Positions 14,551-52,313 of a stretch of 52,673 nucleotides of DNA are shown piece after piece; position 1 is the stretch's first letter; each line of letters opens with the position of its first letter. Made by a program: the position numbers and the translations under genes. A model generated the notes under the pieces. The model did not search any database, had not been told where the DNA came from, and saw only the letters and a list, made by a program, of their open reading frames with translations. The DNA is from Candidatus Woesearchaeota archaeon. Lineage in GTDB: Archaea; Nanobdellota; Nanobdellia; Pacearchaeales; GW2011-AR1. The stretch spans positions 1 to 52,673 of the forward strand of contig CAYUEW010000001.1 in the NCBI GenBank assembly GCA_964444095.1, read 5' to 3'.

Positions 14551-14555
14551 TTATG

Positions 14556-14570: not shown

Positions 14571-14589
14571 TTATTTGGTTTTTTGTCTT

Positions 14590-14994
14590 ATGAGGAAACT
14601 TTCTAAAAAGGGGAATATTCTAACAGAGTATATTATTTTTATTGTCTTAAATTTATTTTTTGCAACAATTCTTATTTTATTTTTAGCTTCGCGGATGGGC
14701 GCGGGGGGGGTTTTGGAAGAGGGATATGCAAAGCAAATAGCATTAAGTTTGGATGCTGCAAAACCAGGGATGAGAATTTATATTGGAATGGAAGGTGCAT
14801 TTGAGGTAGCAAAAAAAGAATTGGGAGAGGGAAGCATTGGAGGATTGGTAGGAATTGAAGGGAATATTGTGACGGTGCGACTTCAGGAAGGTTTGGGATA
14901 TTCTTATTCTTTTTTTAATAATGTGGATGTTACAACTTATTTAGATCCTTCAACTAATTTGGGTTATATCTTTATTGTGGACGAAATAAAATGA
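14590..14994 (+). CDS. Pilin-like protein with class III signal (MRKLSKKG|NILTEYIIFIV...)
   Basis: KKG plus a hydrophobic helix, with Glu at +5. The ATG at 14590 is preferred over the TTG at 14575. Its stop overlaps the next start (ATGA). Confidence 0.55.
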   Translation: MRKLSKKGNILTEYIIFIVLNLFFATILILFLASRMGAGGVLEEGYAKQIALSLDAAKPGMRIYIGMEGAFEVAKKELGEGSIGGLVGIEGNIVTVRLQEGLGYSYSFFNNVDVTTYLDPSTNLGYIFIVDEIK

Positions 14995-16121
14995 AAAATA
15001 AAAAAGGAGATAAAATATTTTCAGCGTATTGGTTTATAATTCTTTTTGCAGTAGCTGCTGCTGTGGTTTATATGGTTTCTATTTTTTATGGGATGCCTTA
15101 TGATGCAAGGAATTTTGAAGCAGAAATACTAACAAACCAAATTGCAGATTGTTTATCCCAAGGAGGATATCTTAAAGGTAATTCTTTTTTGGGTTCTGAT
15201 TCTTTAAGCATGTTTTTAGAAGAATGTGATTTGACTTTTGATGTTGAAGATACTTATGGCTGGGAAGAACAAGGGCAATATTATGTAGAAGTTCATTTAT
15301 ATGATTTTGATGAAAATGCTTCAACAGGAATAGGGGAAGAAGTTTCTAATTTTATTGTGGGAAACAGTAACCTAAAAACTTCTTTCATGATGGAAATAGC
15401 AGCGCAAGAGAAAGGAAATAAGGAGTTGGTGGTGATTCATTATACTGCGGGGTATACTTTGGCAGGGGCAATAAATGAGTTTGATGGAAATGAGCATAAA
15501 AGTATTCATTATATTATAGATAGGGATGGAACAGTAGTAACGAGAAAAGATGAAGATAAAACTGCTTATCACGCTGGATGTGAATTTGGTAGACCTTATT
15601 GTGAAGAAGGTAATGATGTAACCCCTGCTCCTGGAGAAGATTGTTGTAGAAGGGGAACAAACTCAAGGTCTATTGGAATTGAGTTAATTAATCTGGGTTA
15701 TGCTTGTGGTTGGGAAAATAATAAAGAACTTTGTCAAAATTTAGGAGTGGTTGAGTTAGATTACTTTTTTCTTGAAGCAACATCTGACAAAGAAGGTTTT
15801 TGTGGAGTTAGTACAGGAATTTGGGAGGAATATTCTGATGAACAAATAGATGCTTTATCTACTTTAGTTGCAGGAGTGGTTTCCCAGAATAATATTCCCA
15901 TTGATAGAGAACATATAGTTGGGCATGATGAGATGGATCCTTGTCGGAAGAAAGATCCTGGTCCAGCATTTCCTTGGGAGGTATTTATGGGGAAAGTTAA
16001 GGAAAGAGCAAAATTAGACTCTTCTGTTGGAAGAAATTTTTATGTTTTAGATAGAGCAGGAAATCAGTATGTGGTTCAAATTTTAACAATTGTAGATAAA
16101 GTAGAAAAAAATGCTAAATAA
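14991..16121 (+). CDS. Prepilin-signal protein carrying an N-acetylmuramoyl-L-alanine amidase domain (Amidase_2 / AmpD / PGRP fold)
   Basis: N-terminus is MKNKKG|DKIFSAYWFIILFAVAAAVVYMV. Amidase motifs: VVIHYTAG, HYIIDRDGTVV, AYHAG, NSRSIGIELIN, EQIDAL..LV and IVGHDEMDPCRKKDPGPAFPW. The last compares with the AmpD block GHsDIaPgRKtDPGp.FpW. Confidence 0.8.
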   Translation: MKNKKGDKIFSAYWFIILFAVAAAVVYMVSIFYGMPYDARNFEAEILTNQIADCLSQGGYLKGNSFLGSDSLSMFLEECDLTFDVEDTYGWEEQGQYYVEVHLYDFDENASTGIGEEVSNFIVGNSNLKTSFMMEIAAQEKGNKELVVIHYTAGYTLAGAINEFDGNEHKSIHYIIDRDGTVVTRKDEDKTAYHAGCEFGRPYCEEGNDVTPAPGEDCCRRGTNSRSIGIELINLGYACGWENNKELCQNLGVVELDYFFLEATSDKEGFCGVSTGIWEEYSDEQIDALSTLVAGVVSQNNIPIDREHIVGHDEMDPCRKKDPGPAFPWEVFMGKVKERAKLDSSVGRNFYVLDRAGNQYVVQILTIVDKVEKNAK

Positions 16122-16647
16122 AATAAATTTAAAAAAAGCGTCAATCGGGGAAACAATGACTTGGGTAGTGGCAACAGCAATTGTCGTCGTCGTTTTGCTT
16201 GCTTCTGTATTTATTACTTCTCTTTTAGCAAAAACTAAATCTGTTGATAGGAATTTTTTATCTGGAGGAGGAGAAGATTTGGTGGTGACAAAATCTTTGT
16301 CTGCTTATTTGTTAACAGAAGAAAATGGAGAAAACGTTTTTGAGCAATTGATGGATAATAAAGATTCAGAAGATATTGGAGGAATTTTTGGAGAATTTAA
16401 TGGAAATTTAGCAGAAGATATTTTCTTGAAATTATATGTTGAAGATTATAGTGCAAGTAAAATTTGGTTAGGAACTTATTTGAAAGGATATGGTCATAGA
16501 GGAAATAGTTATTTTCGTACATCCCCAGTGGATTTTATTCTGGAATCTGGAATTCTGCTAATAGAAGTAAAAAAAGGGCAAACTTTTGTTGTGAATCAAA
16601 TAGAACTTGATGAAAAGAATTGGTTTGTGGTGGCGTTAACAAATTAA
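16111..16647 (+). CDS. Pilin-like protein with class III signal (MLNKINLKKA|SIGETMTWVVATAIVVVVLL...)
   Basis: KKA plus a hydrophobic helix. It overlaps the amidase gene by 11 nt. Confidence 0.5.
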   Translation: MLNKINLKKASIGETMTWVVATAIVVVVLLASVFITSLLAKTKSVDRNFLSGGGEDLVVTKSLSAYLLTEENGENVFEQLMDNKDSEDIGGIFGEFNGNLAEDIFLKLYVEDYSASKIWLGTYLKGYGHRGNSYFRTSPVDFILESGILLIEVKKGQTFVVNQIELDEKNWFVVALTN

Positions 16648-16648
16648 A

Positions 16649-16984
16649 ATGAAATTAAAAATGAAAAATAAAAAAGCAGATATTACGATTACAATTTTAG
16701 TAATATTGATTACTTCAATTTGTATTTTAACCATAACTAGTTTTCTTGTATCTAAGGAAAAAGTTCAATCAAATTATTTGGGGTTGGAACTTTTTGAAGG
16801 AATGAGTGCTGATGTAGAAACATTTTATTTTTATTTAAATGCAGGATTTACTGAAAGCGAAGCAGCAGAAAAAATTGGAGCAGAAATGGAAGGGAGCAAG
16901 TTGGTAATTGATAAAATTTTTAAAGAGAATAAAGATGATTTAGTTTCTGTGCATTATAACATGAGTGTCGTTAGAGGGTCCTAA
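16649..16984 (+). CDS. Pilin-like protein with class III signal (..MKNKKA|DITITILVILITSICIL...)
   Basis: KKA plus a hydrophobic helix. It starts 1 nt after the upstream stop. An alternative ATG exists at 16661. Confidence 0.5.
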   Translation: MKLKMKNKKADITITILVILITSICILTITSFLVSKEKVQSNYLGLELFEGMSADVETFYFYLNAGFTESEAAEKIGAEMEGSKLVIDKIFKENKDDLVSVHYNMSVVRGS

Positions 16985-17032
16985 AAATTGTTTAAGCAGA
17001 AGTTTTATAAATAAAATAATCTTAAATTGAAT

Positions 17033-17383
17033 ATGCAGAATAAAAGAGGGCAGGGGTTGAGTACTAATGCAATTATACTTATTGTTCTAGGAGTTGTAAT
17101 CTTGGTTGTGATGATAGTCGGATTTACTATGGGTTGGTCTAATATTGCACCGTGGATATCAAATGAAAATGTTGATACAATTGTTACTCAATGTCAAACA
17201 GCTTGTTCGACGATGAGCGTGTATGATTTCTGTACTAAAAAAAGAGAATTAACTGCAAGCGGTTTGCCTGAGGGTGAAAAGAGTGTTACTGAAGATTGTC
17301 AATTCTTTGCCGATACAGCAGGATATGAAAGTTATGGGATAGCAAAATGTCCTAGTTTAACTTGTCCTACAATAGTAAGTTAA
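17033..17383 (+). CDS. Small pilin with a canonical archaeal class III signal (MQNKRG|QGLSTNAIILIVLGVVILVV...); candidate major pilin
   Basis: KRGQ motif plus a hydrophobic helix. 116 aa with 8 Cys in the globular part. It has its own TATA-like box (gttttataaata) about 25 nt upstream. Confidence 0.6.
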   Translation: MQNKRGQGLSTNAIILIVLGVVILVVMIVGFTMGWSNIAPWISNENVDTIVTQCQTACSTMSVYDFCTKKRELTASGLPEGEKSVTEDCQFFADTAGYESYGIAKCPSLTCPTIVS

Positions 17384-17409
17384 TTAAATTAATTTCTTGT
17401 GTGTTGTTT

Positions 17410-17532
17410 ATGGATTATGCATTTTCTCAAAAAAGAAATAAAGGTAAAAGTAAAAAAAAGGAAAAGAAAAAACATCCATATAAAAAAGGTGGAAGTGCGA
17501 GGGTGAGATTGCCAAAAGAAAAATCAAAATAG
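17410..17532 (+). CDS. Possible small, very basic ORF (40 aa; MDYAFSQKRNKGKSKKKEKKKHPYKKGGSARVRLPKEKSK)
   Basis: ATG-to-TAG ORF in the 179-nt gap between the pilin and peptidase genes. It is A-rich and low-complexity, so it may be fortuitous. Confidence 0.15.
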   Translation: MDYAFSQKRNKGKSKKKEKKKHPYKKGGSARVRLPKEKSK

Positions 17533-17562
17533 TTTTATAAATTCCTTTTTCTAATTCTTATT

Positions 17563-18408
17563 ATGTTTGAGGTGATTTTTTTATGGGGTTTGGCTTTAGT
17601 TTGGATTATATTCGCAACAATTCAAGATTGGAAAAGTAGGGAGATTGCTAATTGGCTTAGTTTTTCTTTGATAGTTTTTGCATTGGGATTTAGATTTTTT
17701 TATTCATTGTTTATGGGGGGTAATTTTTCATTTTTTTATCAGGGATTGTTTGGATTAGGAATCTTTTTTGTATTAGGAAATATTTTTTATTATGGAAAAA
17801 TTTTTGCAGGAGGTGACGCAAAATTAATGTATGCCATGGGTGCTGTGTTGCCCATTTATGGAACCATTATAGAGAATGCTCAATTTTTTCTTACATTCTT
17901 ACTTTTATTCTTTTTCGCCGGTGCTGTTTATAGTTTGATTGTTAGTGGGGGGTTAGCGATAAGGAATTTTAAAAATTTTAAAAAAGAATTTGGTAAACAA
18001 TTTAAGAAAAATAAAAAATTATTTTATCTTACTTTGTGTGCTGGTTTAGGAATTATGCTTTTGGGTTTTGTTGAAGCTTCATTTTTTATGTTTGGAGTTT
18101 TGCTTTTTATTACAGCGTATTTATATATTTTTGCAAAAGCAGTTGATGAATCTTGTATGGTTAAGACGATGAATGTAAAAAAATTAACAGAAGGAGATTG
18201 GCTTTACTCTGATTTAAAATTCGGAAGGAAAAAAATCAAAGCAACATGGGACGGGCTCACAAAAAAAGATATAATTGCTATAAGAAAGAATTGTAAAAAT
18301 GTCAAAATAAAACAAGGAGTGCCTTTTACCCCTGCATTTTTGTTAAGTTTAATAATTTTATTTTTATTTTACTTATTGGATATTAATCTATGGGCTCTTT
18401 TGTTTTAA
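17563..18408 (+). CDS. A24-family prepilin/preflagellin peptidase (PibD/FlaK-like)
   Basis: Polytopic protein with the first catalytic Asp context ATIQDWKSREIANW and the second FAGGDAKLMYAMG (GxGD-type). Confidence 0.8.
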   Translation: MFEVIFLWGLALVWIIFATIQDWKSREIANWLSFSLIVFALGFRFFYSLFMGGNFSFFYQGLFGLGIFFVLGNIFYYGKIFAGGDAKLMYAMGAVLPIYGTIIENAQFFLTFLLLFFFAGAVYSLIVSGGLAIRNFKNFKKEFGKQFKKNKKLFYLTLCAGLGIMLLGFVEASFFMFGVLLFITAYLYIFAKAVDESCMVKTMNVKKLTEGDWLYSDLKFGRKKIKATWDGLTKKDIIAIRKNCKNVKIKQGVPFTPAFLLSLIILFLFYLLDINLWALLF

Positions 18409-39187: not shown

Positions 39188-41647
39188 TTATTTTTTCTTT
39201 TTTATTCTAACTTTTCTTATTTTTGGACTTCTTACAGGGTGTTTTTTTCTTTTTATTTCTCTTTTTAATTCAAGTCTGTTTAGTTTCTTTTGCATTCTAC
39301 TAATGTGTGTATCGTGATTAAATTTAGGACGGTGAGGGTCGTTTCCAAATTGGATTTCTCCTCGGATATTTAAGGTTTTGAATAATATTATTGTAAAACC
39401 CACAATTGCTCCAATCAAAATTAAATCTCTGATTAAAGGATCTTGCATGAATGAGGTATTCAATGAAATTGGTTTTATGTTTTTGTAAATATATGCGATT
39501 AAGGCAATTCCTGCAGAAATTCCTATCAAGATAAATCCTGATTTGAATATTATTCTAAATGATTCTCTTAAATTTATTTTTGAAATTGTTTTTTGATGAG
39601 GAGCACATTTCTTTTTTTGTCTAAGAAATAGAATTAGTAAGACAATAATTCCAATAAGTGCAATTAGTTCTATACAAATAATAATTGGATTTGTTTCTGG
39701 ATTGAACGGATTTATTTTTTTGATTATGTCCTCTATTTTTTTCTTGATTTCATCAATTCCGCTTTCCTCTTCTTCATCCACTACTCCTCCTGTTATTCCT
39801 GCTGCAGAACCCCCCCCTTTAGGGGGACTTGTTGATGCGGTAAATGTATCATAGAAACTGTCTCTTCTGCTTCCGAGGTTATAATAATCTGCATGGCATT
39901 GTAAAACATAAGAAGTTCCATCTGTGAATGTTGAAGGGACTGCAAAGGCTCTGGTTATTGAAACAGCACTTTTCGTAATCATTTGATTAAAATTAACAGA
40001 ACTATATTGATATGTTCCATCGGAAATATAACAAGTGAAGTCTATTTCTTTTTGCATTGTTTGAGATTCTTCAACATAGGCTGTCAGGATACAATTCATA
40101 TCTGTTCCAATTGTTCCTGTTGAAGGGCAGGCCACATCTAAATGAAATGTTCCTGTTTTGTTTTCTATTCCTTCGAGGGCGAGGGCGCTTCTTAATTCTG
40201 TATCATAAAAATCAAAAGAGATGTTAAACCAATTTTGACTTAAATTTCTATCCCTTAACTCTAGTTCAATATATCCATCTTCTAAAAATTCTAATTCATA
40301 ATCTGTATGTTGAGTTAAGGTATCTGTTAAATTTTCTACAGTTATGTTTGATAAGATATTGCTTATTTCAAAAATATTTTTTATGTTGAATCCTTGTCCG
40401 AAACTTAATCTCACATCTATGTTGCCTATTCCTGTGCCATTGATATCTACGAAAGACGATAAATTCACGATTGAGTTAATCGTTGTATCGCTTGTCCATT
40501 GCCAATCTAATTCTATATTTATTTCATCTGAAGTAATATTGAAACTAGGGGAGGTTGTAAAATATCCTACAAGTTCTGTGTGAGAGTCGTCTAGCACCCA
40601 CACATTTGTTGAAGCATAACATTCTGATGTTTGTCCCATAAGATATTGTTCTTCTGGAATTGTGAATTTCCTACATTGCATTTGTGTGGTGTTTGTTGAA
40701 ATCCCTCTTATATCTGAGTCTTCTTCTGTATTGTATGCTATTAAAATCCTATCTAAATCAGCATTATTGTCTGTTCCCTTGCTACATCTGACTTGGTAAT
40801 TTATATGGAGAGGAATTCTATTTGAGTAGGCTACATTTGTTACATTTGCGCAAATAAAGATTTCTTTTTTTAATTCATAATTTGATTTACCTGTGACTGT
40901 ATTTACTTCAAGCCAGCTTGATGTTGTGAAGAAACCTTTTGCAAAACCAATTGAATCTACTACGGATATGCCATCTTCATCAATACATTCTGTTCCACTT
41001 GTGTCGCTTCCACAATAGCAAATAATTTTGTAAGCATAATCTGTGGCTTCATCAAATCTTGTAGGGTGCAGAATATCTGAAACTTTCACTTCCCCGTTAA
41101 CCATTCTGGTGTCGTGATACAATAACATTTTTGTTTCATCATTGCTCCAACCAGAAATTTTACAGAATCCTCCTGTAATCTTTTTTCCGTTTTCATCTTT
41201 TACTATCCCTTGCATTGAACCTACTAGTCCTAAGAATCCTCCTCCAAAAGTTGAGTTTGTTATTATGAGGGTGCTTGCAGCGAATCCAGTGGAGGTTACA
41301 TTTGCTGTAGCATTTTGAAGAACAGCAAGACCAGTACCGTTTAGAGAAACATTTAGGAAAATTCCATTTGGCCAAGTCGTTGGGATTGTAAAAGATTGGT
41401 AGAATAATTGGTTTTTTACTGCAGAAGTTGTTCCATAGTCTAACTCAAATTGATATCCTGAAGAATTTGTCCAATTCACATTGTAGGGGGTGTTTTTTTC
41501 ACCAGGTTCTGAACAAGACATTGCGGATGTTGCTGTTTCTCCTGCTAAATAATCTGTTTTATCTAATGTAATTGTACAAGAGGCGTAGACTAATGGTAAG
41601 AGGAATAAAATGAATATCGCAATTAAAGAAAAGTATTTGGCTTTCAT
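39188..41647 (-). CDS. Large surface protein: Sec signal, about 640-aa sequon-rich ectodomain, 3 C-terminal TM helices, basic tail
   Basis: MKAKYFSLIAIFILFLLPLVYASC signal with a lipobox-like ASC, many N-x-S/T sites, an acidic stalk, TM helices and a KRKKHPVRSPKIRKVRIKKKK tail. Confidence 0.6.
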   Translation of the reverse strand: MKAKYFSLIAIFILFLLPLVYASCTITLDKTDYLAGETATSAMSCSEPGEKNTPYNVNWTNSSGYQFELDYGTTSAVKNQLFYQSFTIPTTWPNGIFLNVSLNGTGLAVLQNATANVTSTGFAASTLIITNSTFGGGFLGLVGSMQGIVKDENGKKITGGFCKISGWSNDETKMLLYHDTRMVNGEVKVSDILHPTRFDEATDYAYKIICYCGSDTSGTECIDEDGISVVDSIGFAKGFFTTSSWLEVNTVTGKSNYELKKEIFICANVTNVAYSNRIPLHINYQVRCSKGTDNNADLDRILIAYNTEEDSDIRGISTNTTQMQCRKFTIPEEQYLMGQTSECYASTNVWVLDDSHTELVGYFTTSPSFNITSDEINIELDWQWTSDTTINSIVNLSSFVDINGTGIGNIDVRLSFGQGFNIKNIFEISNILSNITVENLTDTLTQHTDYELEFLEDGYIELELRDRNLSQNWFNISFDFYDTELRSALALEGIENKTGTFHLDVACPSTGTIGTDMNCILTAYVEESQTMQKEIDFTCYISDGTYQYSSVNFNQMITKSAVSITRAFAVPSTFTDGTSYVLQCHADYYNLGSRRDSFYDTFTASTSPPKGGGSAAGITGGVVDEEEESGIDEIKKKIEDIIKKINPFNPETNPIIICIELIALIGIIVLLILFLRQKKKCAPHQKTISKINLRESFRIIFKSGFILIGISAGIALIAYIYKNIKPISLNTSFMQDPLIRDLILIGAIVGFTIILFKTLNIRGEIQFGNDPHRPKFNHDTHISRMQKKLNRLELKREIKRKKHPVRSPKIRKVRIKKKK

Positions 41648-41841
41648 TGTTTGTCCTCCCAGAAATATATTTTTGCCATACCTACTTTTCTTATTTTAAC
41701 TTTTTCTGCTCCTTCTAAAAATGCGAAACAGTTAGAAATTGTTTGCCTCGATAAATTTAATTTTTTGGATAATTCAGAAATCGTGAACCCATTTGAATTT
41801 TTCTTTAATTCTTTTATGATTATTTCTCTGTTTTTATCCAT
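41644..41841 (-). CDS. Small winged-HTH DNA-binding protein (65 aa)
   Basis: FTISELSKKLNLSRQTISNCFAFLEGAEKVKIRKVGMAKIY is a classic HTH-plus-wing pattern. The stop overlaps the ATG of the 819-aa gene (ATGA). The ORF-track N-terminal extension overlaps tRNA-Thr and is rejected. Confidence 0.6.
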   Translation of the reverse strand: MDKNREIIIKELKKNSNGFTISELSKKLNLSRQTISNCFAFLEGAEKVKIRKVGMAKIYFWEDKQ

Positions 41842-41849
41842 TCTATTGT

Positions 41850-41887
41850 AAATCAATATTGATTTCTTTATTAAATACAATATTGTA
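41850..41887 (-). promoter_or_regulatory. Twin palindromes sharing a CAATATTG core (aaatcaatattgattt at 41850-41865; tacaatattgta at 41876-41887)
   Basis: Both are perfect palindromes by hand check. They bracket the TATA-like tatttaataaa of the wHTH gene, and the proximal one lies 9-24 nt upstream of the ATG. Confidence 0.5.
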
Positions 41888-41936
41888 AAGCAATAAATAG
41901 TATTTAAGAGTTTTGTTTTAGAAGATTGAGAAGAAA

Positions 41937-42008
41937 AGCCTGCGGAGAGATTTGAACTCCCGACCCTCTGCTTACAAGGCAGATGCTCTACCACTGAGCT
42001 ACACAGGC
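41937..42008 (-). tRNA. tRNA-Thr (anticodon UGU)
   Basis: Hand fold: acceptor GCCTGTG/CGCAGGC, anticodon arm TCTGC-CTTGTAA-GCAGA, T arm GGGAG-TTCAAAT-CTCTC. Confidence 0.85.
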
Positions 42009-43007: not shown

Positions 43008-43059
43008 GTGCATTTAGATGCGAAGAAATATTTAAATAGTTTCTTTTGCAATTTTACTT

Positions 43060-43257
43060 ATGAGAAAAGGAGGAATGGTAATTGCGTTTGTGTATTTAAT
43101 TTTTGGGTTATATTTTATTAATTCTGCTCTTAATTTTATAACTTTACCTTCTTTAATAGGAAGTCTTGACAAATGGATAACTTTTGGGGGAGGATTGTTG
43201 ATTCTTCTTGGGGGATTTAGTTTTTGGAAAATACGTAGAGAAAAATTTAGATATTAA
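43060..43257 (+). CDS. Small membrane protein (2 TM)
   Basis: 65-aa hydrophobic ORF preceded by the TATA-like gaaatatttaaatag element at about 43025-43039. Confidence 0.4.
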   Translation: MRKGGMVIAFVYLIFGLYFINSALNFITLPSLIGSLDKWITFGGGLLILLGGFSFWKIRREKFRY

Positions 43258-43296: not shown

Positions 43297-43339
43297 ATTA
43301 TTAAGAAGTTTTATATACTTAATTTTATTATACAGACTG

Positions 43340-43477
43340 ATGAAGAAATACTTGCTTCTTATAGAGGATGAGAAACTTTGGGGTAAATTTAAAGAAAGTA
43401 TAGAAAAAGATATTAATAGTGAAATTTTAAAATTGATAAAGGAGAAAGTAAATCCAGAGGTGACCAATGAAAAATAA
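43340..43477 (+). CDS. Small ORF (45 aa) with a ribbon-helix-helix-like pattern, absent from the ORF track
   Basis: MKKYLLLIEDEKLWGKFKESIEKDINSEILKLIKEKVNPEVTNEK reads as a short beta strand followed by two helices. It overlaps the start of the 611-aa gene by 11 nt, and a TATA-like box lies about 25 nt upstream. Confidence 0.4.
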   Translation: MKKYLLLIEDEKLWGKFKESIEKDINSEILKLIKEKVNPEVTNEK

Positions 43478-45302
43478 ACGAGGACAAATTACAATTTTTA
43501 TTATTATCGCGATAGTTTTAGTGGCAGGAGTGGCTGTTTTTTTTGTATTTAGAGATAGTCTGGGATTTACAAAGATTCCTGCAAATATTGAACCAGCATA
43601 TAATTCTTTTTTAACTTGTTTAGAAGATGAAGCTAGTATTGGAGTAGAAGTTTTAGGAAGCCAGGGGGGCTATATTGAATTACCAGACTTTGAACCCGGC
43701 TCTGTTTACATGCCTTTTTCTTCTCAGCTTAATTTTATGGGAAGCCCAATTCCCTATTGGTATTATGTTTCTAGTAATGGTGGGGAAGAAGAACAAGTTC
43801 CGTCACAAACAGAAATGGAAAGGCAGTTGCAAATATTTGTTGAAGAAAGAATAAAGAATTGCAATTTAGAAAGATATTATGAAGAAGGTTTTGAAATAGA
43901 ATTTGGAGAGCCAGAAGCAAAAGTGGATATTTCAAATAAAAGGGTGGAGGTGAGATTAACAATGCAGGTAGAGATGAGAAAGAATGAAGACTCTGCTTTA
44001 ATTAAAACGCATAAAATTTCAGTGGATTCAAAATTAGGGAAGCTCTATAATTCTGCCAAAAAGATTTATGAGAAAGAACAAAAGAATTTGTTTTTGGAAA
44101 ATTATGCTGTGGATACATTAAGACTTTATGCTCCTGTTGACGGGGTAGAGATTACTTGTTCCCCTTTAATCTGGGATACAAATGAGATTTTTGATTCCTT
44201 AGAAGAAGCAATTGAAGTGAATACTTTTGCCTTAAGAACTGATGAAGATTTCCTTACGCAAGAGCAAGAGTATTTTGTTGTGGATGTGGATGTTGATGAA
44301 GAAGTGAGATTTATAACCTCAAATACTTGGCCTCATTCTTTTGAAGTGTTGCCTTCAGATGGAAATGTCCTCTTAGCAAATCCTGTTGGAAATCAGCCGG
44401 GTTTAGGAGCATTGGGTTTTTGTTATGTGCCATATCATTTTGTATATAATGTAAACTATCCTGTATTGGTTCAAGTATCTTCTGGAGAAGAACTTTTCCA
44501 ATTCCCTTTTGCAGTAGTAATTCAAGGTAACAAACCAAGAGAATCATTAAATGCTGCTGCAAGTACGGTTGATATTGAATTATGTAAATATAAGAATACA
44601 CCAGTTTCGGTGAAGGTTTATGATGCTTTTATGAATCCCATTGAAGCAGAAATTTCTTACAAATGTTTTGGAGAAAAATGTAATATGGGAACTACAGATG
44701 AAGGGGTATTAAACACAGAATTTCCTCAATGTGTTAATGGATATGTGATTGCTAGAGCAGAAGGGTTTAATAATAAGAAACAAATTTTATCGACGACAAA
44801 TGCAGGAAGTGTGAGTTTAATGATGGATAAACTTTATGAGACGGACATTAATTTAAAATTAGATGGAAGTAATTATGATAAAGAAGCAATAATTTATTTT
44901 ATATCTGCAGATGAAACAAAAACTGTTGTTTACCCCGAGCAAAATTCTGTAGAATTAGTAGAAGGGCAATATGAAGTTCAAGTTTATATTTTTGATAATT
45001 CAGAAATAAAATTACCTGAGACAAATTATGAAGAGTGTGTTGAGGCAAGTAGGTCTGGAATTGGGGGTTTATTTGGTATGACAGAACAAAATTGTTTTGA
45101 TGTGTCTATTCCTGCACAAGTTATTTCTAATGCTCTTATAGGAGGAGGGAAGCAAGAACAGTATATTTTAGAATCTGAATTGCAAGAATCTAATTCAATA
45201 GAAATTCTTGCAGAGAGTTTAACAGCTCCTAAAACATTAGATGATTTACAAAATAATTATCTTTTATTTGAAGATAAAAAATTAGATATATATTTCACAT
45301 GA
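43467..45302 (+). CDS. Large (611 aa) protein with a canonical archaeal class III signal (MKNKRG|QITIFIIIAIVLVAGVAVFFVF); candidate pilus-associated adhesin
   Basis: KRGQ plus a hydrophobic helix identical in type to the small pilin at 17033. The stop overlaps the ATG of the giant gene (ATGA). Confidence 0.6.
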   Translation: MKNKRGQITIFIIIAIVLVAGVAVFFVFRDSLGFTKIPANIEPAYNSFLTCLEDEASIGVEVLGSQGGYIELPDFEPGSVYMPFSSQLNFMGSPIPYWYYVSSNGGEEEQVPSQTEMERQLQIFVEERIKNCNLERYYEEGFEIEFGEPEAKVDISNKRVEVRLTMQVEMRKNEDSALIKTHKISVDSKLGKLYNSAKKIYEKEQKNLFLENYAVDTLRLYAPVDGVEITCSPLIWDTNEIFDSLEEAIEVNTFALRTDEDFLTQEQEYFVVDVDVDEEVRFITSNTWPHSFEVLPSDGNVLLANPVGNQPGLGALGFCYVPYHFVYNVNYPVLVQVSSGEELFQFPFAVVIQGNKPRESLNAAASTVDIELCKYKNTPVSVKVYDAFMNPIEAEISYKCFGEKCNMGTTDEGVLNTEFPQCVNGYVIARAEGFNNKKQILSTTNAGSVSLMMDKLYETDINLKLDGSNYDKEAIIYFISADETKTVVYPEQNSVELVEGQYEVQVYIFDNSEIKLPETNYEECVEASRSGIGGLFGMTEQNCFDVSIPAQVISNALIGGGKQEQYILESELQESNSIEILAESLTAPKTLDDLQNNYLLFEDKKLDIYFT

Positions 45303-48300
45303 AACAAAAAAGAATGATAAAATTGAGTATTGTTTTCTTATTCTTACTTTTAGTACTACCCCTTGTCTCTTCTGCTACTCGTTCAAATCCCCAATATACA
45401 CAATATATGGGGCAAGGAGAATCTTCTAATGATTCTGTATGTCGAGAAGGACAGGACTTTCTTATTCAAATTGCTCCGTTTGGTTGCACTCCTGCCGTGG
45501 TGAGAAGTGATTTGTTGGAAGAACAGAATGTTCCTGTTTTTTGTCAATTGAGTGCTACAAAAGTTAATCCATTAATAGATGTTGAAGCAATTGATAGCAT
45601 ATCTTTTTCAGGGGAATATCCTCTAGAAGTAGAAGGACTTGCATTTCACCCTGCGCAAGCAGCACTTGGGTTAGAAGGAAATTTGAATAGTCCTGTATTA
45701 AATAATATTGGTTATGTAGTTATTGTTTTAAAAAAGCAAGCAAATTCTTCTGCAATGCCTGAGTATGTTTCGGGGAATCTTACAGCTAAGGTAAAATATG
45801 ATGTACAGAGCACCCTTGGTATAGGAAAAGCAAATTTTTATTTACCCGAATTAACAGACGCTGATTGGGAAAAGAGCCAATATCAATATAGTTTTTGGGA
45901 AGGCAAAGGAACAGTAAGAGCAGAAAATATAGATGAAAATAAAGTTTCTCTCTCAATTTATTCAAAAGGGAATAAGGTTTCTAGTGTTACTCTTAATGAA
46001 GGTGGAGAATCTGAAAAGATTTATCTTCCTGGTTTTGATTGTTTAGCAAGTTTGCAAGTTAAACTTAATGGCTTGGAAAATCCTAGTACCCGAGCACTTC
46101 TTCGAGTGAATGCAGATGTGGTAGAGGTTGCAGATGGAGAGAAATTTTTAGAGAATAAATGTCAAGTTACTAGTTTAAAAAAACAAGGATTGACACAAAA
46201 TGTGAAAATAAAATGTATAGAAGATGAGGGAGTAAATAGTTTTAATTTAATTATTAGTCCGAGGGTTAATTTGAGTATTGATGGTGTTGAAAATGAATTT
46301 GGTTTAGGAGATTCTCTTTATGATATTGATGAGGGAAAAAAATCTGTTTACTTGGCGTATATTGGAGCTAAGGGAGATTCACAGGATGTAAATAATTTAT
46401 TTGTTTTTCTTATGTCTAGTCCAGAACATAAAGAAAGATTAAGTGAAAGTGAATTAGCCAGATATAATTTTCTTGTAGGAGATTTGTTAGAAAAGAATTC
46501 TGGTTGGGATGGAGCAATTGATGAAGGTTCTAACCTTGTAAAAAAGATTCCAGGGATTTTGCCCTTGCTCGCTAATTTTGTTATACGAGGAGAAGAGTTT
46601 CATTGGGTTAATTATGGTGGTGTTGGAAGGGGATTTGCTGATTTAGTGATTGTTAACGGATTTGTTAATCCTCAAGATAAAATTTTAAGTGGAGACCCCA
46701 AAAAATATTATGGTTTAGCAACAGCAGATTATGAAACAATTGCAGAAAGTTTTTCTGGAGAGAGATACACACCTAAGATAGCTATTCCGCTTGATGAAGA
46801 AGCATTATATAAGAAGATTCTTTTTTCTTGGAGTTTGCAGCAGAAAGCAACTGTTTTGGAATTATGTGGTGAATTTAAGAATTTGTATTCTAATTCAGAT
46901 AAAGAATTAGAGAAATATTGTGATGATGAATATAAACTTTCAAATCAAGAAACAGCTTCAGTATATGTTACTATAAATGGGAATGTAAAAGAAATTATTT
47001 TTGATGGAATCTATGAGCCAAGTGCGCAAGAATATGGTGCGAAAATTTTTGTTAGCAATACTCTCCCAGCTTATGATGGAGAAAAAGATTTAAGAAAGAA
47101 TCAAGAAGTTTATGTTTCTGCTACTGAATCAATTATATTAAAAGAACTTGAAGAAGATTATGCGATTTTTGACGTTAGTAAAATTAATTATGAGAACATT
47201 AAAGAGATTACTTATAATCCTAAAAACTTGAAAATAGAATTAGGAGATTATGCAGTTATTGGTGAGAATAATTATAAGATAAATTTGGAAGGTATAAATC
47301 TTAAGAAATTTGCAAAGGTTTCTATTTCTCCTGGTTTTGAAGATTCAGGAACAACTGCAGATTTTGGTTTTAATATTGGAATTGAACAACGTGCAATTGA
47401 ATTATCCCCTGAAGTGATAGCAGGAAAAATTGAAAATTTAGATTCGGAGCTTGGGACATGGCAGAATATTTCTGATGGGCTTGAAACAGTTGTTAAGGGA
47501 TTGAAAGTCGCATGTATTGCAACAGGAGCTGCCTTGACGATTAAAAATCTTTTAGCAAATGCCGGAGGAGAAGGAATTGCTCGAAATTATGTTATGCGTG
47601 GTGCAGGAGGCTGGTATGAAAGGTGTGCAGATATGGTTGGGAGTGGAACTTATATTTCTCAAGAACAATGTTTAATTAAAAAAGCAGTTAATATTGATGC
47701 AGATGTTAGCACTCTTTCTGGTTTGATAAGTAAGCAGAATGAGAAGATACAAGAAATAGAAAAGGCGACGGTGAAAACAGAAACATTTGGTAATACTGTT
47801 GTAGATACTAAAGAGTTCATGATAGACTATTCTGAACAGGTTATTTCTTCCTTGGATAGCGAACAACTTGGAGAATTAGATCCATATAATACTGGAAAAA
47901 CAATTAACATGGAAGATATGAAAATAAGTTTATCTATTGGTGGCTGGGAAGAGGGAAATTATAATAAGGAACAATTAAGAGAAATTGAACTTTATTCAAA
48001 TGTTTTAAAAGAAGATTCAGGTGCGACAGATGAATTAAGAAGCATTGCAGAAAAAGAACTTTATTCTACTCTCTTGGATGTTCAAACGACTGCAGGAAGC
48101 TTTGTGGAAAGAACGACTATTGCGGGCACATTAGGGATTGATCCAGGAAAAATCGGTCTTTATGAGACTAAGGATACAAAGAAAATTAAGTATGAAGAAG
48201 TTACTTATGGGGATATAGCAGGAGAAGTGCCAATAGGCGGTTTAAATCCAGAGACACCAATTCAAGTAATACAATATGAAGGAGGAACATATGTGGTTGT

Positions 48301-51300
48301 TTTAGATGATTCTTCAGGAACAGGGATTTTGCCAATAAAACGTATTAATGAAGGCGAGGAAATGGTTTCTTCTGGGAATTTTCAAATATATGATTTAAAT
48401 GGAAAATTGGTTGAAGATCCTGAGGAACATGTGGCTGGATTAAAAAATATTTATTTTCAAAAATATGATAGTTTAACTTATGAGAATGAATATAAAAATG
48501 CAGAATTGCAATATTATGAGACAGAACCATATAAAGGACTTCCAGCAATTGTTCCTTTTGATGAAGATGAGGGGTGGTATGTTGCAACAAAACAAACTTT
48601 GCCAGTGTTAGGAAATGTGGGGGCATATGATGATTCTGGAGCAGCAAATAGTTTTTGGATATGTAATGTGGGTAAGAATGGTTTAGAAGAGAATATTGGA
48701 GGAGATGATAGTTGTCAAATGATTAATTTGGGAACAAGACAACCATTTGATCAATTTGGCGGACTTGATCCTGCTACTGCAGAAAAACTTGTAAGCCAAG
48801 CAGAAAAAGCAGTTGCTCAAGCATCTAGTGCTTATGGTTCGAATATGCCAAAGAAAGTTGATATTTTGGGAACTGCATTTGAAGTGGGGGCCCCTGCAGC
48901 TAATTTGTTAGGGATAGAATGTGCGGATTTAATGTCTCCTAAAGATTGTCAGTTATTGTTTAATGTTTGTGATCCGGTAATTTGTCCGTCGAGTAGGTGT
49001 GATTTGGGAGGCGCTTATCCTGTGAGAGATGTTGTTCAAACAGGAGTCATAGGAAGTTTGGTTTTGTGTTTACCTAATATTCAAGAAGGAATTTTTATGC
49101 CTATTTGTTTAACAGGAGTAAAAGCAGGAATTGATGGTTGGATTTCTGTAAGGATGTCATATAGAGATTGCTTGCAGAATGCATTAGACACGGGAGAGAT
49201 GGTTGGAATTTGTGATGAGATTTATAGTATTTATATTTGTGAATTTTTTTGGAGACAAGCATTACCTTTGGCAAATTTAGCAATACCCCAACTTGTTAGT
49301 GCAGTGATGGGGCAAAATGCGCGAGGAGGAGGAGAATATCTTTCTGTAGAAAATGCTTGGAAAACAGCAGGAGATTCGGTTACTTATTTCACTCAATATT
49401 ATGGAGCAAATGCTCTTGAAGCATTTAAATCTAGGACATCAGAAGAAGTCGGAACTGAAATTTGTAAGGTTTCTATTTCTGCAGTTTATGCTAGTGGAGC
49501 AGATTTGTTAGATACAATATCTGAACCAGATTCTCCTTCGCAGTTCCATGGGAGGTTTGATGAAATTCCTTTCTCTTCGGCAACAGTGCCTGCAACTTCA
49601 CAATACAAAGTATTTTATCATATTTATGCTGGACAAGATGCAGGAGCATATTATCAAGTTTATCTTCAGGGGATACCTGAAAGTAGTTATTATCAAGACT
49701 CTTCAGCGACGCTGACTGTTGCTTCTGGTTATATTGAAGCAGGAGGGTATGCTACAGAAACAGTGGACCAGACCGCAGTTTCAGGTTATCAAGAATTATG
49801 TATTAATGTTGATGGACAAGAAGAATGTGGGTTCGGAGAAGTTTCAACTTCTTTTGCAATAGATTATGCTACAGATATTTATGTAGCAAGTCAAGTAGAT
49901 GATGTAGAGATTAGCAAAGAATCAAAATGTGTTGGAGATAGTAATCTTGGAATAATTCGAGTTTGTGCAACATATAATCCTGGAGAAGGTTCAGACCCTT
50001 ATGTTGGAACAGAAAATTCAAGATGGAAAGAGGTGGGTTATTGTGGAGTGGAAGAAATTTTATGCTGGTTAGACACAGATAGTGTTGGAGATGCAATTGA
50101 AGTTGCTACCATTGAAGCAGATGCGTTGGGCAATGTTACACAAAATTATTTAGATATTTTAAGAGAGAAAGAAGGTTATCTTACAGAGGAAGAATTTGTT
50201 TCAAAAGTAGAAAAGATTAATAAAGAGGGAAAGATTTTTCGTAAGTTAGTTTTGATAGAAGAGATTTTTGATAAAGTTTTCTTAAACAAAGAAAAAGCTT
50301 ATTTGTATTTGTTAAGAGGAAATGCTTATGCGATGTTCTTGGGAGGAGATTTAGATGAGGACTTGGTAGAAGCAGGAGAAGAGACAGAAGAGGACCCTTT
50401 TATTGCTCGATATAAAAAAGTAGAAGGAGAATTTCCAGACGGATTGTTTGAATATTATGCTAAAGAAAATAAACCAACTGATTGGGGAAAAAATAGATTT
50501 AAAGGATTGTTGGTAGCAATTGCAGAAAGACAGAGTAATTTAGGAGATCCTGATCCAACTTGGATAATGGAATATGGTAATCGTGAAGAAATGTATGAAG
50601 GAGCAGAAAATCAAGTTAAATTTGCTTCGTCTACGTTGAAGTTAGCACTAAATAAAGTAAGTCCTGAAGGAAGTAATTATAAAGTGTGTGAAGGGAAAGC
50701 GGATACGGATTTATTACTTTGTGTAGTAAGTGTTTATCTCACTGGACAAGATGATGAAGAAGGAAGAGTTTATGCTCAAGAAGTTATTGATAGAATAAGT
50801 TTCTGGGAGAATTATTTTGATAAGAATGGAGAACAAATAGCAATAACGTTTGCCGAGGCAAGGGCAGCGTGTGGTTCTCCTTCTGATTTTAGGTATGAGG
50901 AATGTATGGCGATATTTGGTGTTGAAGAAGGAGATGAAGAAGAGGAGAAAGATGAAGAAGAAGGAGAACGAGAACAATGTGGAGATGGAGAATGTACTCG
51001 GGGAGAGATTTGTGGAAGTGTAGATATCCCTCCGCAATGCAAATCAGATTGTGGAGAGTGCGGGGATGATGAAGAAGTAATAGCTCCTGAGGAAGTTATT
51101 CAAAGATATTTGAAAATTGAGGAAGAGTTTAAGGTAAATGGGTGGTCCTTGTTTGAATATTATTCTGCAAAGAATAAACCAGATATTTTAACTAAAGAAA
51201 GGTTTAAGGCTTTGTTAGTTGCAATTGCAGAAAAACAAAGTAATCTTGGATATCCTGAAGGAAAGTATGATTCAGCTTGGTTAATGGAATATGGATATAA

Positions 51301-51589
51301 ATATGCAGGTACTCAAAGAGTAGATGAATCTGAAGGAGCAATAAAACAAGTAGCTTTAGCTTCAGAAGTATTGAATGTAGCATTAAATGGAGATAGGGAT
51401 TCAGAAAGTCCTTATTATGAATGTAGGAACAAATGGAAAATTAGAGATATTCGGTTAACTTGTGTAGTAGAAGTTTATTTAACTAATGATGAATCAAAAC
51501 CTCTTGATGTTTCTTTTGGGGAGCAATATGCTGAAGAGATTATAGATAGGATGGATTTTTGGGAAGAATATTTTATTGAGAATCAATAA
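45299..51589 (+). CDS. Giant (2096 aa) secreted protein with a Cys-rich central region and a duplicated C-terminal domain
   Basis: Uninterrupted ORF with the Sec-type signal MKQKRMIKLSIVFLFLLLVLPLVSSA. No C-terminal TM. Two related units of about 145-160 aa lie at the C-terminus, separated by an acidic linker and a CGDGEC...CGEC module. Confidence 0.7.
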   Translation: MKQKRMIKLSIVFLFLLLVLPLVSSATRSNPQYTQYMGQGESSNDSVCREGQDFLIQIAPFGCTPAVVRSDLLEEQNVPVFCQLSATKVNPLIDVEAIDSISFSGEYPLEVEGLAFHPAQAALGLEGNLNSPVLNNIGYVVIVLKKQANSSAMPEYVSGNLTAKVKYDVQSTLGIGKANFYLPELTDADWEKSQYQYSFWEGKGTVRAENIDENKVSLSIYSKGNKVSSVTLNEGGESEKIYLPGFDCLASLQVKLNGLENPSTRALLRVNADVVEVADGEKFLENKCQVTSLKKQGLTQNVKIKCIEDEGVNSFNLIISPRVNLSIDGVENEFGLGDSLYDIDEGKKSVYLAYIGAKGDSQDVNNLFVFLMSSPEHKERLSESELARYNFLVGDLLEKNSGWDGAIDEGSNLVKKIPGILPLLANFVIRGEEFHWVNYGGVGRGFADLVIVNGFVNPQDKILSGDPKKYYGLATADYETIAESFSGERYTPKIAIPLDEEALYKKILFSWSLQQKATVLELCGEFKNLYSNSDKELEKYCDDEYKLSNQETASVYVTINGNVKEIIFDGIYEPSAQEYGAKIFVSNTLPAYDGEKDLRKNQEVYVSATESIILKELEEDYAIFDVSKINYENIKEITYNPKNLKIELGDYAVIGENNYKINLEGINLKKFAKVSISPGFEDSGTTADFGFNIGIEQRAIELSPEVIAGKIENLDSELGTWQNISDGLETVVKGLKVACIATGAALTIKNLLANAGGEGIARNYVMRGAGGWYERCADMVGSGTYISQEQCLIKKAVNIDADVSTLSGLISKQNEKIQEIEKATVKTETFGNTVVDTKEFMIDYSEQVISSLDSEQLGELDPYNTGKTINMEDMKISLSIGGWEEGNYNKEQLREIELYSNVLKEDSGATDELRSIAEKELYSTLLDVQTTAGSFVERTTIAGTLGIDPGKIGLYETKDTKKIKYEEVTYGDIAGEVPIGGLNPETPIQVIQYEGGTYVVVLDDSSGTGILPIKRINEGEEMVSSGNFQIYDLNGKLVEDPEEHVAGLKNIYFQKYDSLTYENEYKNAELQYYETEPYKGLPAIVPFDEDEGWYVATKQTLPVLGNVGAYDDSGAANSFWICNVGKNGLEENIGGDDSCQMINLGTRQPFDQFGGLDPATAEKLVSQAEKAVAQASSAYGSNMPKKVDILGTAFEVGAPAANLLGIECADLMSPKDCQLLFNVCDPVICPSSRCDLGGAYPVRDVVQTGVIGSLVLCLPNIQEGIFMPICLTGVKAGIDGWISVRMSYRDCLQNALDTGEMVGICDEIYSIYICEFFWRQALPLANLAIPQLVSAVMGQNARGGGEYLSVENAWKTAGDSVTYFTQYYGANALEAFKSRTSEEVGTEICKVSISAVYASGADLLDTISEPDSPSQFHGRFDEIPFSSATVPATSQYKVFYHIYAGQDAGAYYQVYLQGIPESSYYQDSSATLTVASGYIEAGGYATETVDQTAVSGYQELCINVDGQEECGFGEVSTSFAIDYATDIYVASQVDDVEISKESKCVGDSNLGIIRVCATYNPGEGSDPYVGTENSRWKEVGYCGVEEILCWLDTDSVGDAIEVATIEADALGNVTQNYLDILREKEGYLTEEEFVSKVEKINKEGKIFRKLVLIEEIFDKVFLNKEKAYLYLLRGNAYAMFLGGDLDEDLVEAGEETEEDPFIARYKKVEGEFPDGLFEYYAKENKPTDWGKNRFKGLLVAIAERQSNLGDPDPTWIMEYGNREEMYEGAENQVKFASSTLKLALNKVSPEGSNYKVCEGKADTDLLLCVVSVYLTGQDDEEGRVYAQEVIDRISFWENYFDKNGEQIAITFAEARAACGSPSDFRYEECMAIFGVEEGDEEEEKDEEEGEREQCGDGECTRGEICGSVDIPPQCKSDCGECGDDEEVIAPEEVIQRYLKIEEEFKVNGWSLFEYYSAKNKPDILTKERFKALLVAIAEKQSNLGYPEGKYDSAWLMEYGYKYAGTQRVDESEGAIKQVALASEVLNVALNGDRDSESPYYECRNKWKIRDIRLTCVVEVYLTNDESKPLDVSFGEQYAEEIIDRMDFWEEYFIENQ

Positions 51590-51673
51590 TGCGGAGACAA
51601 GGATTCGAACCTTGGTAAGCACTAAGCTAACAGGTCCTAAACCTGTCCCGTTTGACCACTCCGGCATCCCCGC
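51590..51673 (-). tRNA. tRNA-Leu (anticodon UAG), class II with a long variable arm
   Basis: Hand fold: acceptor GCGGGGA/TCTCCGC, anticodon arm ACAGG-TTTAGGA-CCTGT, long variable arm, T arm CAAGG-TTCGAAT-CCTTG. Confidence 0.85.
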
Positions 51674-51797
51674 ACAGGAATACAATTATTTTTCCCTATA
51701 AAAAACTTTAGACACAGTTTTTCGGATAAACTTTTTGTTATCCCTAAAAAGGAAGAACACTCAGAAGATTTATAAACTTGGAAATTCTTGAATTTTT

Positions 51798-52313
51798 ATG
51801 AAACAAGAAAAAATTGATGATAATTTAATCAAGAAAAAAATCTATGATCTCTTGAGTTCGAAAGAAACTCGTTTAGCTGAGCTTTTCAAAAAGCATGAGC
51901 AAGATATTCATTATTATAATGACTCTAAATCTGAAGGATGTGGGAAATATTGCCATTGTAATGGAAAGATTTTTATTAATCTTAACTTGCCTGACAAAAG
52001 AAAAATTAAAAATTTTTCTCTTGCGAACTCTGTTATGAAAACTTTTCATGAAATAGGTCACAAACTTGATACTAAATCCAGATACTATTTCCAAAGCGAA
52101 TTAAGAGCAAGAAAATTTGAATACAATGTTGCTAAAAGACTTGGTGGCTCTTTTTTAGAATTTTCCAGTTCTGATTTTATGACTTTAGCAGCAGCAAAAG
52201 GAGATTATAATACTTTTGGTCAATTATTTAATTTACATACATTTTATAGAAAACAAGTAGGTATGCCTTGTTCCAATTATCACAAATTGTTTAATGCAAA
52301 AAATGCCAATTAA
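51798..52313 (+). CDS. Hypothetical protein with an HExxH motif (possible small zinc metallopeptidase)
   Basis: FHEIGHKLD motif in a 171-aa soluble protein. No other recognisable family signature. Confidence 0.35.
   Translation: MKQEKIDDNLIKKKIYDLLSSKETRLAELFKKHEQDIHYYNDSKSEGCGKYCHCNGKIFINLNLPDKRKIKNFSLANSVMKTFHEIGHKLDTKSRYYFQSELRARKFEYNVAKRLGGSFLEFSSSDFMTLAAAKGDYNTFGQLFNLHTFYRKQVGMPCSNYHKLFNAKNAN

Follow-up and report, generated by a model that had tools for sequence, protein, structure and literature searches.

The 52,673-nucleotide (nt) stretch of archaeal DNA analysed here, referred to as the window, carries a block of three overlapping open reading frames (ORFs) on its forward strand. 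The first encodes a small protein of 45 amino acids (aa; positions 43340-43477), the second a predicted surface protein of 611 aa that begins with a prepilin-type (class III) signal (43467-45302) and the third a giant protein of 2096 aa (45299-51589). The second and third genes form a pair that recurs among Pacearchaeota- and Woesearchaeota-type archaea. The giant is modular: its disulfide-rich core of 1690 aa is constant, and the C-terminal cassette that follows the core is exchangeable.

Organization and conservation of the locus

The source DNA is low in GC (~32%), and the window is archaeal, as it encodes ribosomal proteins S3Ae (rpS3Ae) and L44e (rpL44e) and the transcription factor TFIIB. 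Related contigs that were fetched are labelled Pacearchaeota, Woesearchaeota or Nanoarchaeota. The original prediction had described an 11 nt overlap between the 45-aa ORF and the start of the 611-aa gene, and the ORF coordinates and the junction sequence (...GTGACCAATGAAAAATAA) agree with it. The second junction can likewise be read directly from the sequence, where the stop codon of the 611-aa gene overlaps the start codon of the giant gene by 4 nt as the predicted ATGA (ACATGAAAC). A Shine-Dalgarno-like box, GAGGTGA (43457-43463, forward strand), lies 3 nt ahead of the ATG of the 611-aa gene. The overlap of stop and start codons across the block implies that translation of the three genes is coupled.

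On the reverse strand, a tRNA-Val and a tRNA-Leu gene bracket the block. The tRNA-Leu (TAG) gene (51589-51674, reverse strand) abuts the giant ORF so closely that the last base of the ORF, 51589, is common to both genes, which leaves no room for a terminator between them. The original prediction had named an interruption of the giant ORF as a finding that would undo it. The ORF is a single uninterrupted 2096-aa gene call on an independent European Nucleotide Archive (ENA) assembly of the same strain, and contigs from JGI and Logan hold partial copies identical to the giant; the ORF is therefore not an assembly artefact.

To place the block in its lineage, the GTDB was scanned with one genome per species, and relatives of the 611-aa protein were found in 330 genomes. 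Eighty of these loci were fetched; the synteny survey comprises 86 loci in total, and the N-terminal and junction statistics are drawn from 78 homologues. All 80 GTDB loci are labelled Pacearchaeota, Woesearchaeota, Nanoarchaeota or unclassified archaeon, save one probably misbinned metagenome-assembled genome (MAG). The giant core follows the 611-aa gene in 84 of the 86 loci, and the two exceptions are contig ends. Upstream of the pair, rpS3Ae and rpL44e are present in 68-72 of the 86 loci, and TFIIB is encoded downstream in 50. Half of the 78 loci (39) share the ATGA overlap, and in most of the others a few bases separate the two genes. Conservation of the whole triad, on which the original prediction depended, is thus partial: the pair of large genes is retained nearly everywhere, whereas the 45-aa gene is found in only 40 of the 86 loci.

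Two further observations concern the loci surveyed. One of them, L025 (DATKUW010000047.1), was deposited as a 'Bacillota bacterium' MAG. It has the complete archaeal neighbourhood, comprising rpS3Ae, rpL44e, the three genes of the block and TFIIB, and is almost certainly a Pacearchaeota-type contig that was misbinned. A Bacillota label is also attached to P0443, a homologue of the 45-aa protein. The idea that one contig might hold two paralogous modules was considered and rejected, as the two contigs of equal length (100057) that raised the suspicion come from different assemblies and organisms.

The 611-aa protein and its giant partner

Judged by its sequence, the N-terminus of the 611-aa protein is a class III signal as these are defined for archaea. 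It reads MKNKRG↓QITIF... (the arrow marks the predicted cleavage site here and below), with the leader MKNKRG at 43467-43484 and a conserved hydrophobic helix (QITIFIIIAIVLVAGVAVFFVF) at 43485-43550. The family shares the class III-type motif [KR][GAS]↓QVTIFIIIAI, in which the start of the mature protein is almost invariant. Among the 78 homologues, the residue at position -1 is G in 57, A in 15 and S in 6, a K or R stands at -2 in 65, and Q+1, T+3 and F+5 are invariant (78/78). Leader lengths vary, and a FlaFind-like regular expression matches 60 of the 78. The small pilin encoded at 17027/17033 of the window carries NKRG↓QGLST and so has NKRG↓Q in common with the 611-aa protein. The original description of this N-terminus as a canonical class III signal like that of the small pilin is borne out by the conservation of the motif.

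Database searches gave 2341 full-length homologues of the 611-aa protein, of which the best 120 are 57-72% identical to it and have no Pfam domain. A family profile had no significant match among PDB sequences, and neither Pfam, NCBIfam nor PHROGs gave a significant match. An AlphaFold2 (AF2) model, with a predicted local distance difference test score (pLDDT) of 74 and a predicted template modelling score (pTM) of 0.46, begins with a 26-residue helix (residues 4-29), followed by a linker with pLDDT <50 and a helix at residues 42-65. The modelled ectodomain is alpha/beta over residues ~42-360, and residues ~373-611 (44583-45299) are predicted from AF2 secondary structure to form tandem Ig-like/CnaB-like beta-sandwich domains (pLDDT 80-93). 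Foldseek searches against the PDB matched the model at the level of domains only, with the sandwiches alone and query TM-scores of 0.13-0.15. The matches include Bacillus anthracis TIE (6fwv, E 3e-7), Gram-positive pilins (4oq1, 7vcr and 5hts) and SlaB (8qox_B, E 3.8e-5, query TM-score 0.13). The model shows no clear pilin fold, and the pilins that Foldseek finds are sandwiches of the sortase-type Gram-positive class, not type IV pilins. As modelled, the 611-aa protein is a stalk-like surface protein with a prepilin-type N-terminus.

The giant begins with a predicted Sec-type signal peptide (residues 1-26, 45299-45376), read from the sequence, with cleavage expected after VSSA. This leader has the typical n-h-c pattern (...PLVSSA↓TRS), and the consensus leader of the family ends ...SA↓Y..SNPQ. 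No second strongly hydrophobic segment was found in a hydropathy scan of the giant, and the tails of 106 homologues yielded no anchor, save one marginal mid-tail segment in one tail. The protein thus has the features expected of a Sec-exported product that lacks a membrane anchor, as had been proposed.

Residues 27-1690 (45377-50368) constitute the conserved core that defines the family and is common to all homologues aligned. At least 791 homologues of about 1900-3600 aa were found, and all 120 of those listed cover residues 1 to ~1690 of the giant, with 43-61% identity. The sequences that match residues 1041-1690, clustered at 50% identity, fall into 1077 clusters, of which 910 match with E<=1e-30, and on these sequence data the family looks sharply bounded. 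The most conserved region is a Cys-dense centre at residues ~1202-1412 (48902-49534), in which column identity is 0.63-0.83 (about 80%). All 17 Cys residues between positions 1208 and 1589 are invariant, and 11 of these lie within residues ~1202-1412. The centre had been described as hydrophobic and dense in Cys. Its Cys density is upheld, whereas its hydrophobicity is only mild, with a Kyte-Doolittle maximum of 1.46. A transmembrane (TM) or fusion-peptide reading of the centre was rejected because this maximum falls below the usual TM threshold.

Structural information on the core is sparse. The giant has no match in Pfam or NCBIfam even at E<=1 and nothing significant in PHROGs, and its family profile gave 0 matches at E<=1 against PDB sequences. 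An AF2 model of residues 1041-2096 has a pLDDT of 60.6 and draws the Cys-rich centre as long helices with pLDDT 25-49, and for that reason the model is not trustworthy there. Foldseek comparison of the same model with the PDB and BFVD gave weak Ig-like sandwich matches only.

Beyond residue ~1690 the homologues of the giant no longer align with one another, and each ends in a variable tail (median about 470 aa). The tail in the window, on which the original prediction had not remarked, consists of two tandem copies of an all-alpha domain of about 150-165 aa. Copy 1 (residues 1694-1844, 50378-50830; hmmsearch E 3e-54) is modelled by AF2 with pLDDT mostly 70-95 and carries the motifs LLVAIAERQS, WIMEYG and VYLTG. 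Copy 2 (residues 1926-2096, 51074-51586; hmmsearch E 2e-57) shares 47% identity with copy 1 (BLASTP E 2e-36). The acidic, Cys-rich linker between the copies (residues ~1845-1925, 50831-51073) contains an extremely acidic run (EEGDEEEEKDEEEGERE) and then a small Cys cluster (CGDGECTRGEICGSVDIPPQCKSDCGECG) reminiscent of a miniature knot held by disulfides or metal; in the alignment of 120 homologues hardly any sequence has a corresponding linker (occupancy about 0.1). According to hmmsearch the all-alpha domain is present in 33 of 247 giants, and searches of Pfam, of PDB sequences with a profile and of structures with Foldseek gave no match to it.

The order of conserved motifs in this domain, QS/ES followed by W[IL]M, VYxTG and YAxEV (in full LLVAIAxRQS, W[IL]M[EG]Y, VYxTG and YAxEV), parallels that of lysozyme-like transglycosylases, and the repeats were considered as divergent SLT domains. 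The catalytic Glu aligned with the Q/E position of the cassette in three independent comparisons, all of them non-significant. Alignment with SLT tails by hhalign gave probabilities of 7.7% and 3.7%, and the best PDB profile match of the Glu-bearing subfamily was a 'phage cell wall hydrolase' (8yxk) at E 0.21. No lysozyme appeared among the Foldseek matches (PDB, BFVD) or in the PDB profile search with the cassette domain, and iterated hidden Markov model (HMM) searches found no bridge to the SLT tails. The motif order fits an SLT domain, but all statistics are sub-threshold, and because none of the three comparisons is significant we have not filed the cassette under SLT. On the motif-I helix, where a lysozyme-like domain has its catalytic Glu (A-I-x-x-x-E-S/T), both copies in the window have Gln (AIAERQS and AIAEKQS); across 37 copies in the family this residue is Gln in about 21, Glu in 9 (e.g. 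LLVAISQQESGVG) and another residue in 5. If the domain is lysozyme-like, the copies in the window are probably non-catalytic, and with Gln in place of the catalytic Glu the cassette here is more likely to bind than to cleave.

Other cassettes are found in the giants of relatives, whose tails carry Pfam SLT, Glucosaminidase, DUF1615, TPM and trypsin domains. SLT is detected by Pfam in about 5 of the 120 listed homologues, and 16 of 106 tails contain its ES...GLMQ motif. The commonest cassette in relatives is of a 'KIWQAA' type (about 35 of the 106 tails, e.g. P0133-P0160), with two modules bearing Cys...His motifs. These motifs, such as NVCTRFV...GDIVMFG...QHIIIF, recall NlpC/P60/CHAP or papain by eye, and the Cys is apparently replaced in many tails. 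In Pfam, the tails of this type give a sub-threshold match to Amidase_5 only (E 0.037).

Small genes, the pilus locus and other neighbours

Although the 45-aa ORF was missed by the ORF track, the original prediction treated it as real, and the survey agrees. In 40 of the 86 loci a homologue occupies the same position with 58-83% identity (tblastn), and a database of 5.8 billion proteins holds 2549 homologues. On these grounds the ORF is a genuine gene family, present by sequence in about half of the relatives. Nearly all of the best 120 of the 2549 homologues are 43-48 aa long and unannotated. Homologues of the gene mostly encode 42-46 aa and often run 4 or 11 nt into the gene that follows. 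The family alignment has 16 invariant residues and describes a cytoplasmic mini-protein with the consensus MKKYLLLIEDEKLWEKFKxxIxKDINTEIIxLIKKKI. The absence of the gene from loci L004 and L006 had suggested that it is strain-specific or non-conserved, a view overturned by the 86-locus survey.

The suggestion that this protein is ribbon-helix-helix (RHH)-like found no backing. Its length and beta-alpha-alpha helix pattern are RHH-like by eye, but the putative strand KKYLLLI is almost all hydrophobic, unusually so for a strand that reads DNA. None of 22 members scanned with Pfam matched an RHH family, comparison of the family profile with PDB sequences returned no RHH protein, and hhalign comparison of the family with a CopG sequence gave a probability of 0.5%.

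A second small gene, absent from the original prediction, is a conserved upstream neighbour of the block. This gene, tm2 (43060-43257, forward strand), encodes a 65-aa small membrane protein with two hydrophobic segments and lies directly upstream of the 611-aa gene in 62 of the 86 loci (30-59% identity, tblastn). Its orthologues were read in L004 and L006, and Pfam and PHROG searches gave no match. A TATA-like sequence (TTTAAATA, 43031-43038) precedes tm2 as a promoter judged by eye, and a putative archaeal TATA box (TTTATATA, 43310-43317) is centred ~26 nt ahead of the ATG of the 45-aa ORF, both on the forward strand. The spacing of ~26 nt between TATA-like box and ATG, seen by eye at both small ORFs, suggests leaderless transcripts, and the box at 43310-43317 is suggestive of a single leaderless transcript that carries the 45-aa, 611-aa and giant genes.

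The window also contains a type IV pilus locus (6783-18408) with a T2SSE ATPase, an A24 peptidase and about six pilin-like genes. The prepilin peptidase (Peptidase_A24, Pfam PF01478, E 2e-11; 17563-18408, forward strand) is encoded 25 kb from the module and is presumed to be the processing enzyme of the 611-aa protein, a link drawn only from the signal motif. An ORF at 10113-12269 is a putative PilC-like platform protein with no significant Pfam match. Inside the pilus operon, 14991-16121 (forward strand) encodes a 376-aa protein with a pilin-like N-terminus (MKNKKG↓DKIFSAYWFIILFAVAAAVVYMV), residues 145-325 of which match Pfam Amidase_2 (N-acetylmuramoyl-L-alanine amidase; E 4.7e-24). The combination of an Amidase_2 domain with a prepilin-type signal suggests a wall-cutting enzyme delivered by the pilus. 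The original prediction regarded the three-gene block as a second, physically separate arm of this pilus system. The survey does not bear this out: in none of the 86 loci do the ±10 kb around the pair contain a gene for a pilus ATPase, platform protein, A24 peptidase or pilin. Archaeal surface proteins with class III signals can be encoded outside filament loci, as are the bindosome binding proteins (preprint 10.64898/2026.04.22.720090).

Several other ORFs lie close to the block. A 171-aa ORF (51798-52313, forward strand) between the giant and TFIIB has an HExxH-type motif (FHEIGHKL) and no Pfam match. Among the 86 loci it is present in L001 only, which is the sole same-strain locus that reaches that far; it may be a strain-specific insertion that encodes a small metalloprotease-like protein. 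At 39188-41647 (reverse strand) is the gene for an 819-aa secreted protein that lacks Pfam domains and whose leader ends in a lipobox-like sequence (...LVYAS↓C). Poorly conserved and found in only 4 of the 86 related loci, it is another variable surface protein near the module. A mechanical 116-aa ORF (41644-41994, reverse strand) is probably over-extended, since it overlaps a tRNA-Thr gene (41937-42008, reverse strand) and gene callers place a 65-aa HTH_11-type protein at the site (L001 8178-8375).

Candidate functions and comparison with known systems

All functional steps of the module are inferred, and the reading that we favour is one in which we place about even confidence: the 611-aa protein as anchor and the giant together form a two-component surface complex that contacts bacterial cell walls. 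The locus would encode a lineage-wide, vertically inherited complex of Pacearchaeota/Woesearchaeota-type archaea. The 611-aa protein would be exported by way of its class III signal, cut after Gly6 by the A24 peptidase and retained by its invariant hydrophobic N-terminal helix. That helix would sit in the membrane or else in a short stem resembling a pilus, and the protein would project a stalk of beta-sandwich domains. The giant would be exported by Sec and then held at the surface by the 611-aa protein. The complex may contact the wall of bacterial partners or prey, and may locally bind or open it.

Strict 1:1 translational coupling of the giant to a surface-anchored partner favours a complex of the two proteins, and the beta-sandwich stalk resembles surface stalk and pilin domains, including those of SlaB. 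An interaction of the giant with peptidoglycan is suggested by the exchangeable cassettes, which in relatives include peptidoglycan hydrolases or other enzyme domains. The pilin-like peptidoglycan amidase in the pilus operon of the same genome lends independent support to a bacterial wall as the target. Several points weigh against this reading. No peptidoglycan-hydrolase domain is detected in the giant of the window itself (Pfam and NCBIfam, E<=1), and Pfam finds no domain in 110 of the 120 homologues listed. The lysozyme-like interpretation of the cassette is sub-significant and is not supported by Foldseek searches of the PDB and BFVD. No known fold matches the core, and the AF2 model loses confidence precisely at its most conserved part.

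An alternative that we consider unlikely is that the 611-aa protein is a bulky minor or 'modular' pilin, placed at the tip of a filament by the machinery encoded at 6783-18408, where it would display the giant in the role of adhesin or enzyme. In bacteria, PilY1 is presented by minor pilins at the type IV pilus tip, and the module resembles minor-pilin/PilY1 and modular pilin systems in that a protein with a prepilin signal is encoded beside a large, Sec-exported protein that has no anchor. The identity of the NKRG↓Q motif in the 611-aa protein and the small pilin speaks for this view, and the invariance of the first ten mature residues of the 611-aa protein suggests specific helix packing and not a mere membrane anchor. 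The genome has the T2SSE ATPase, putative PilC-like ORF, A24 peptidase and pilin-like genes, and its pilus operon already fuses a pilin-like protein to Amidase_2. Archaeal type IV filament (TFF) loci are often reported to carry large adhesin-like or PilY-like proteins (preprint 10.64898/2026.04.22.720090). However, the pair is never found within 10 kb of pilus genes in the 86 loci, and class III signals also occur on surface proteins encoded away from TFF loci. The AF2 model has a disordered linker between the N-terminal helix and the globular part and no recognisable pilin fold, the giant is not similar to PilY1 or any other solved protein, and the module has no homology to minor pilins.

A two-component surface layer (S-layer) or envelope scaffold, with the 611-aa protein as membrane stalk, the giant as canopy and the enzyme domains as decoration, seems to us rather improbable. 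This arrangement would resemble that of SlaA and SlaB of Sulfolobales, which are also encoded by adjacent genes and combine a beta-sandwich stalk of ~0.5 kaa (thousand amino acids) with an anchorless partner of >1.4 kaa. A small anchor encoded side by side with a large anchorless partner fits such a scaffold, as does a module that is widespread (330 GTDB species genomes) and has a fixed housekeeping neighbourhood. The Foldseek match of the stalk domains to SlaB also fits, but it is weak and reflects a generic beta-sandwich (query TM-score 0.13). SlaB is anchored by a C-terminal TM segment, and the topology of the 611-aa protein, with its N-terminal helix, is the opposite. The giant is unusually conserved for an S-layer protein, both overall (43-61%) and in its Cys-rich centre (about 80% column identity), and has 17 invariant Cys residues and swappable enzymatic tails. 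It shows no similarity to SlaA or, in comparisons of profiles with PDB sequences, to any solved S-layer protein.

The weakest alternative, which we regard as very unlikely, makes the giant a diffusible bacteriolytic or toxin-like exoprotein and the 611-aa protein its export, maturation or immunity helper: the absence of an anchor, the hydrolase cassettes of relatives and the succession of a conserved N-terminal ~80% and a variable C-terminal cassette recall polymorphic toxins and contact-dependent effectors, in which shuffled C-terminal modules follow a constant N-terminal body, but a conserved disulfide-rich core of 1690 aa far exceeds a delivery tag and does not resemble RHS, CdiA or MafB bodies, the modules are wall-hydrolase-like or unknown with no recognisable toxin/immunity pair, no small immunity-like gene follows the variable end (a tRNA gene is next in the window, and TFIIB lies downstream in 50 of the 86 loci), and the strict 1:1 translational coupling with a partner anchored at the surface points to a complex.

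Returning to a two-component complex at bacterial walls, a bolder form of this reading, which strikes us as doubtful, is that the pair is a host-contact organelle of Pacearchaeota-type DPANN archaea. The giant would be carried on a prepilin-anchored stalk, its invariant, disulfide-locked and mildly hydrophobic centre would enter the envelope of the partner or open it, and the interchangeable cassette would be matched to the partner's wall. If this were true, the cassettes, being peptidoglycan enzymes, would imply that these archaea live on bacteria in a cross-domain episymbiosis, and the type of cassette would predict the type of host. To our knowledge, no Pacearchaeota or Woesearchaeota have been cultured so far. 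More broadly, the module is a strong, testable candidate for the host-contact machinery of these uncultured archaea, and the relation of cassette type to co-occurring bacteria offers a handle on host range. Even for cultured DPANN archaea, the proteins of the attachment organelle are explicitly described as unknown (PMC11420986).

The 611-aa protein can also be compared with the bindosome-type proteins of Sulfolobus that bind sugars (preprint 10.64898/2026.04.22.720090). Like these, it places a large non-pilin ectodomain behind a conserved class III signal, and its gene lies outside the filament-assembly locus. Unlike these, it has no substrate-binding-protein domain and no adjacent ABC transporter, and it is coupled to a secreted giant.

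For the giant itself, which the original prediction could assign to no family that it could name, a family has in fact been published. Large proteins of Pacearchaeota and Woesearchaeota with a murein transglycosylase domain were proposed to mediate attachment to bacterial walls (Castelle et al., 2021; PMC8204110), a 'large lytic murein transglycosylase' was described subsequently (Vigneron et al., 2022; PMC9723730), and the wall-attachment proposal was repeated in 2024 (mBio; PMC10936187). Attachment to bacterial walls or attack on them has thus been put forward for these large proteins (PMC8204110, PMC9723730). By sequence homology the giant belongs with these fam00969-type proteins and lacks the SLT domain that gave them their name, an assignment based on an entire core shared with SLT-bearing proteins that are annotated as transglycosylase SLT domain-containing: residues 1 to ~1690 are 44-48% identical (E = 0) to the PF01464-positive homologues P0172, P0205, P0213 and P0236. 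The fam00969-type proteins come from the same lineage, fall in the same size class (about 1900-3600 aa) and have a signal peptide. They differ from the giant in the window in that the latter has no detectable SLT domain, and SLT is one of several alternative cassettes in the family, so that annotation based on SLT catches only a small minority of its members. In full-text searches of the literature, neither the 611-aa partner nor the arrangement of conserved core and cassette was found described, nor were the small genes or the constant place of the module in the genome. The giant family itself is therefore already known, and the coupled 611-aa/giant module appears to be undescribed. What had been a sporadic annotation of a 'large murein transglycosylase' in a few genomes becomes a module found at a fixed position lineage-wide, with a prepilin-like partner, a constant 1690-aa core, an exchangeable cassette and two small accessory genes.

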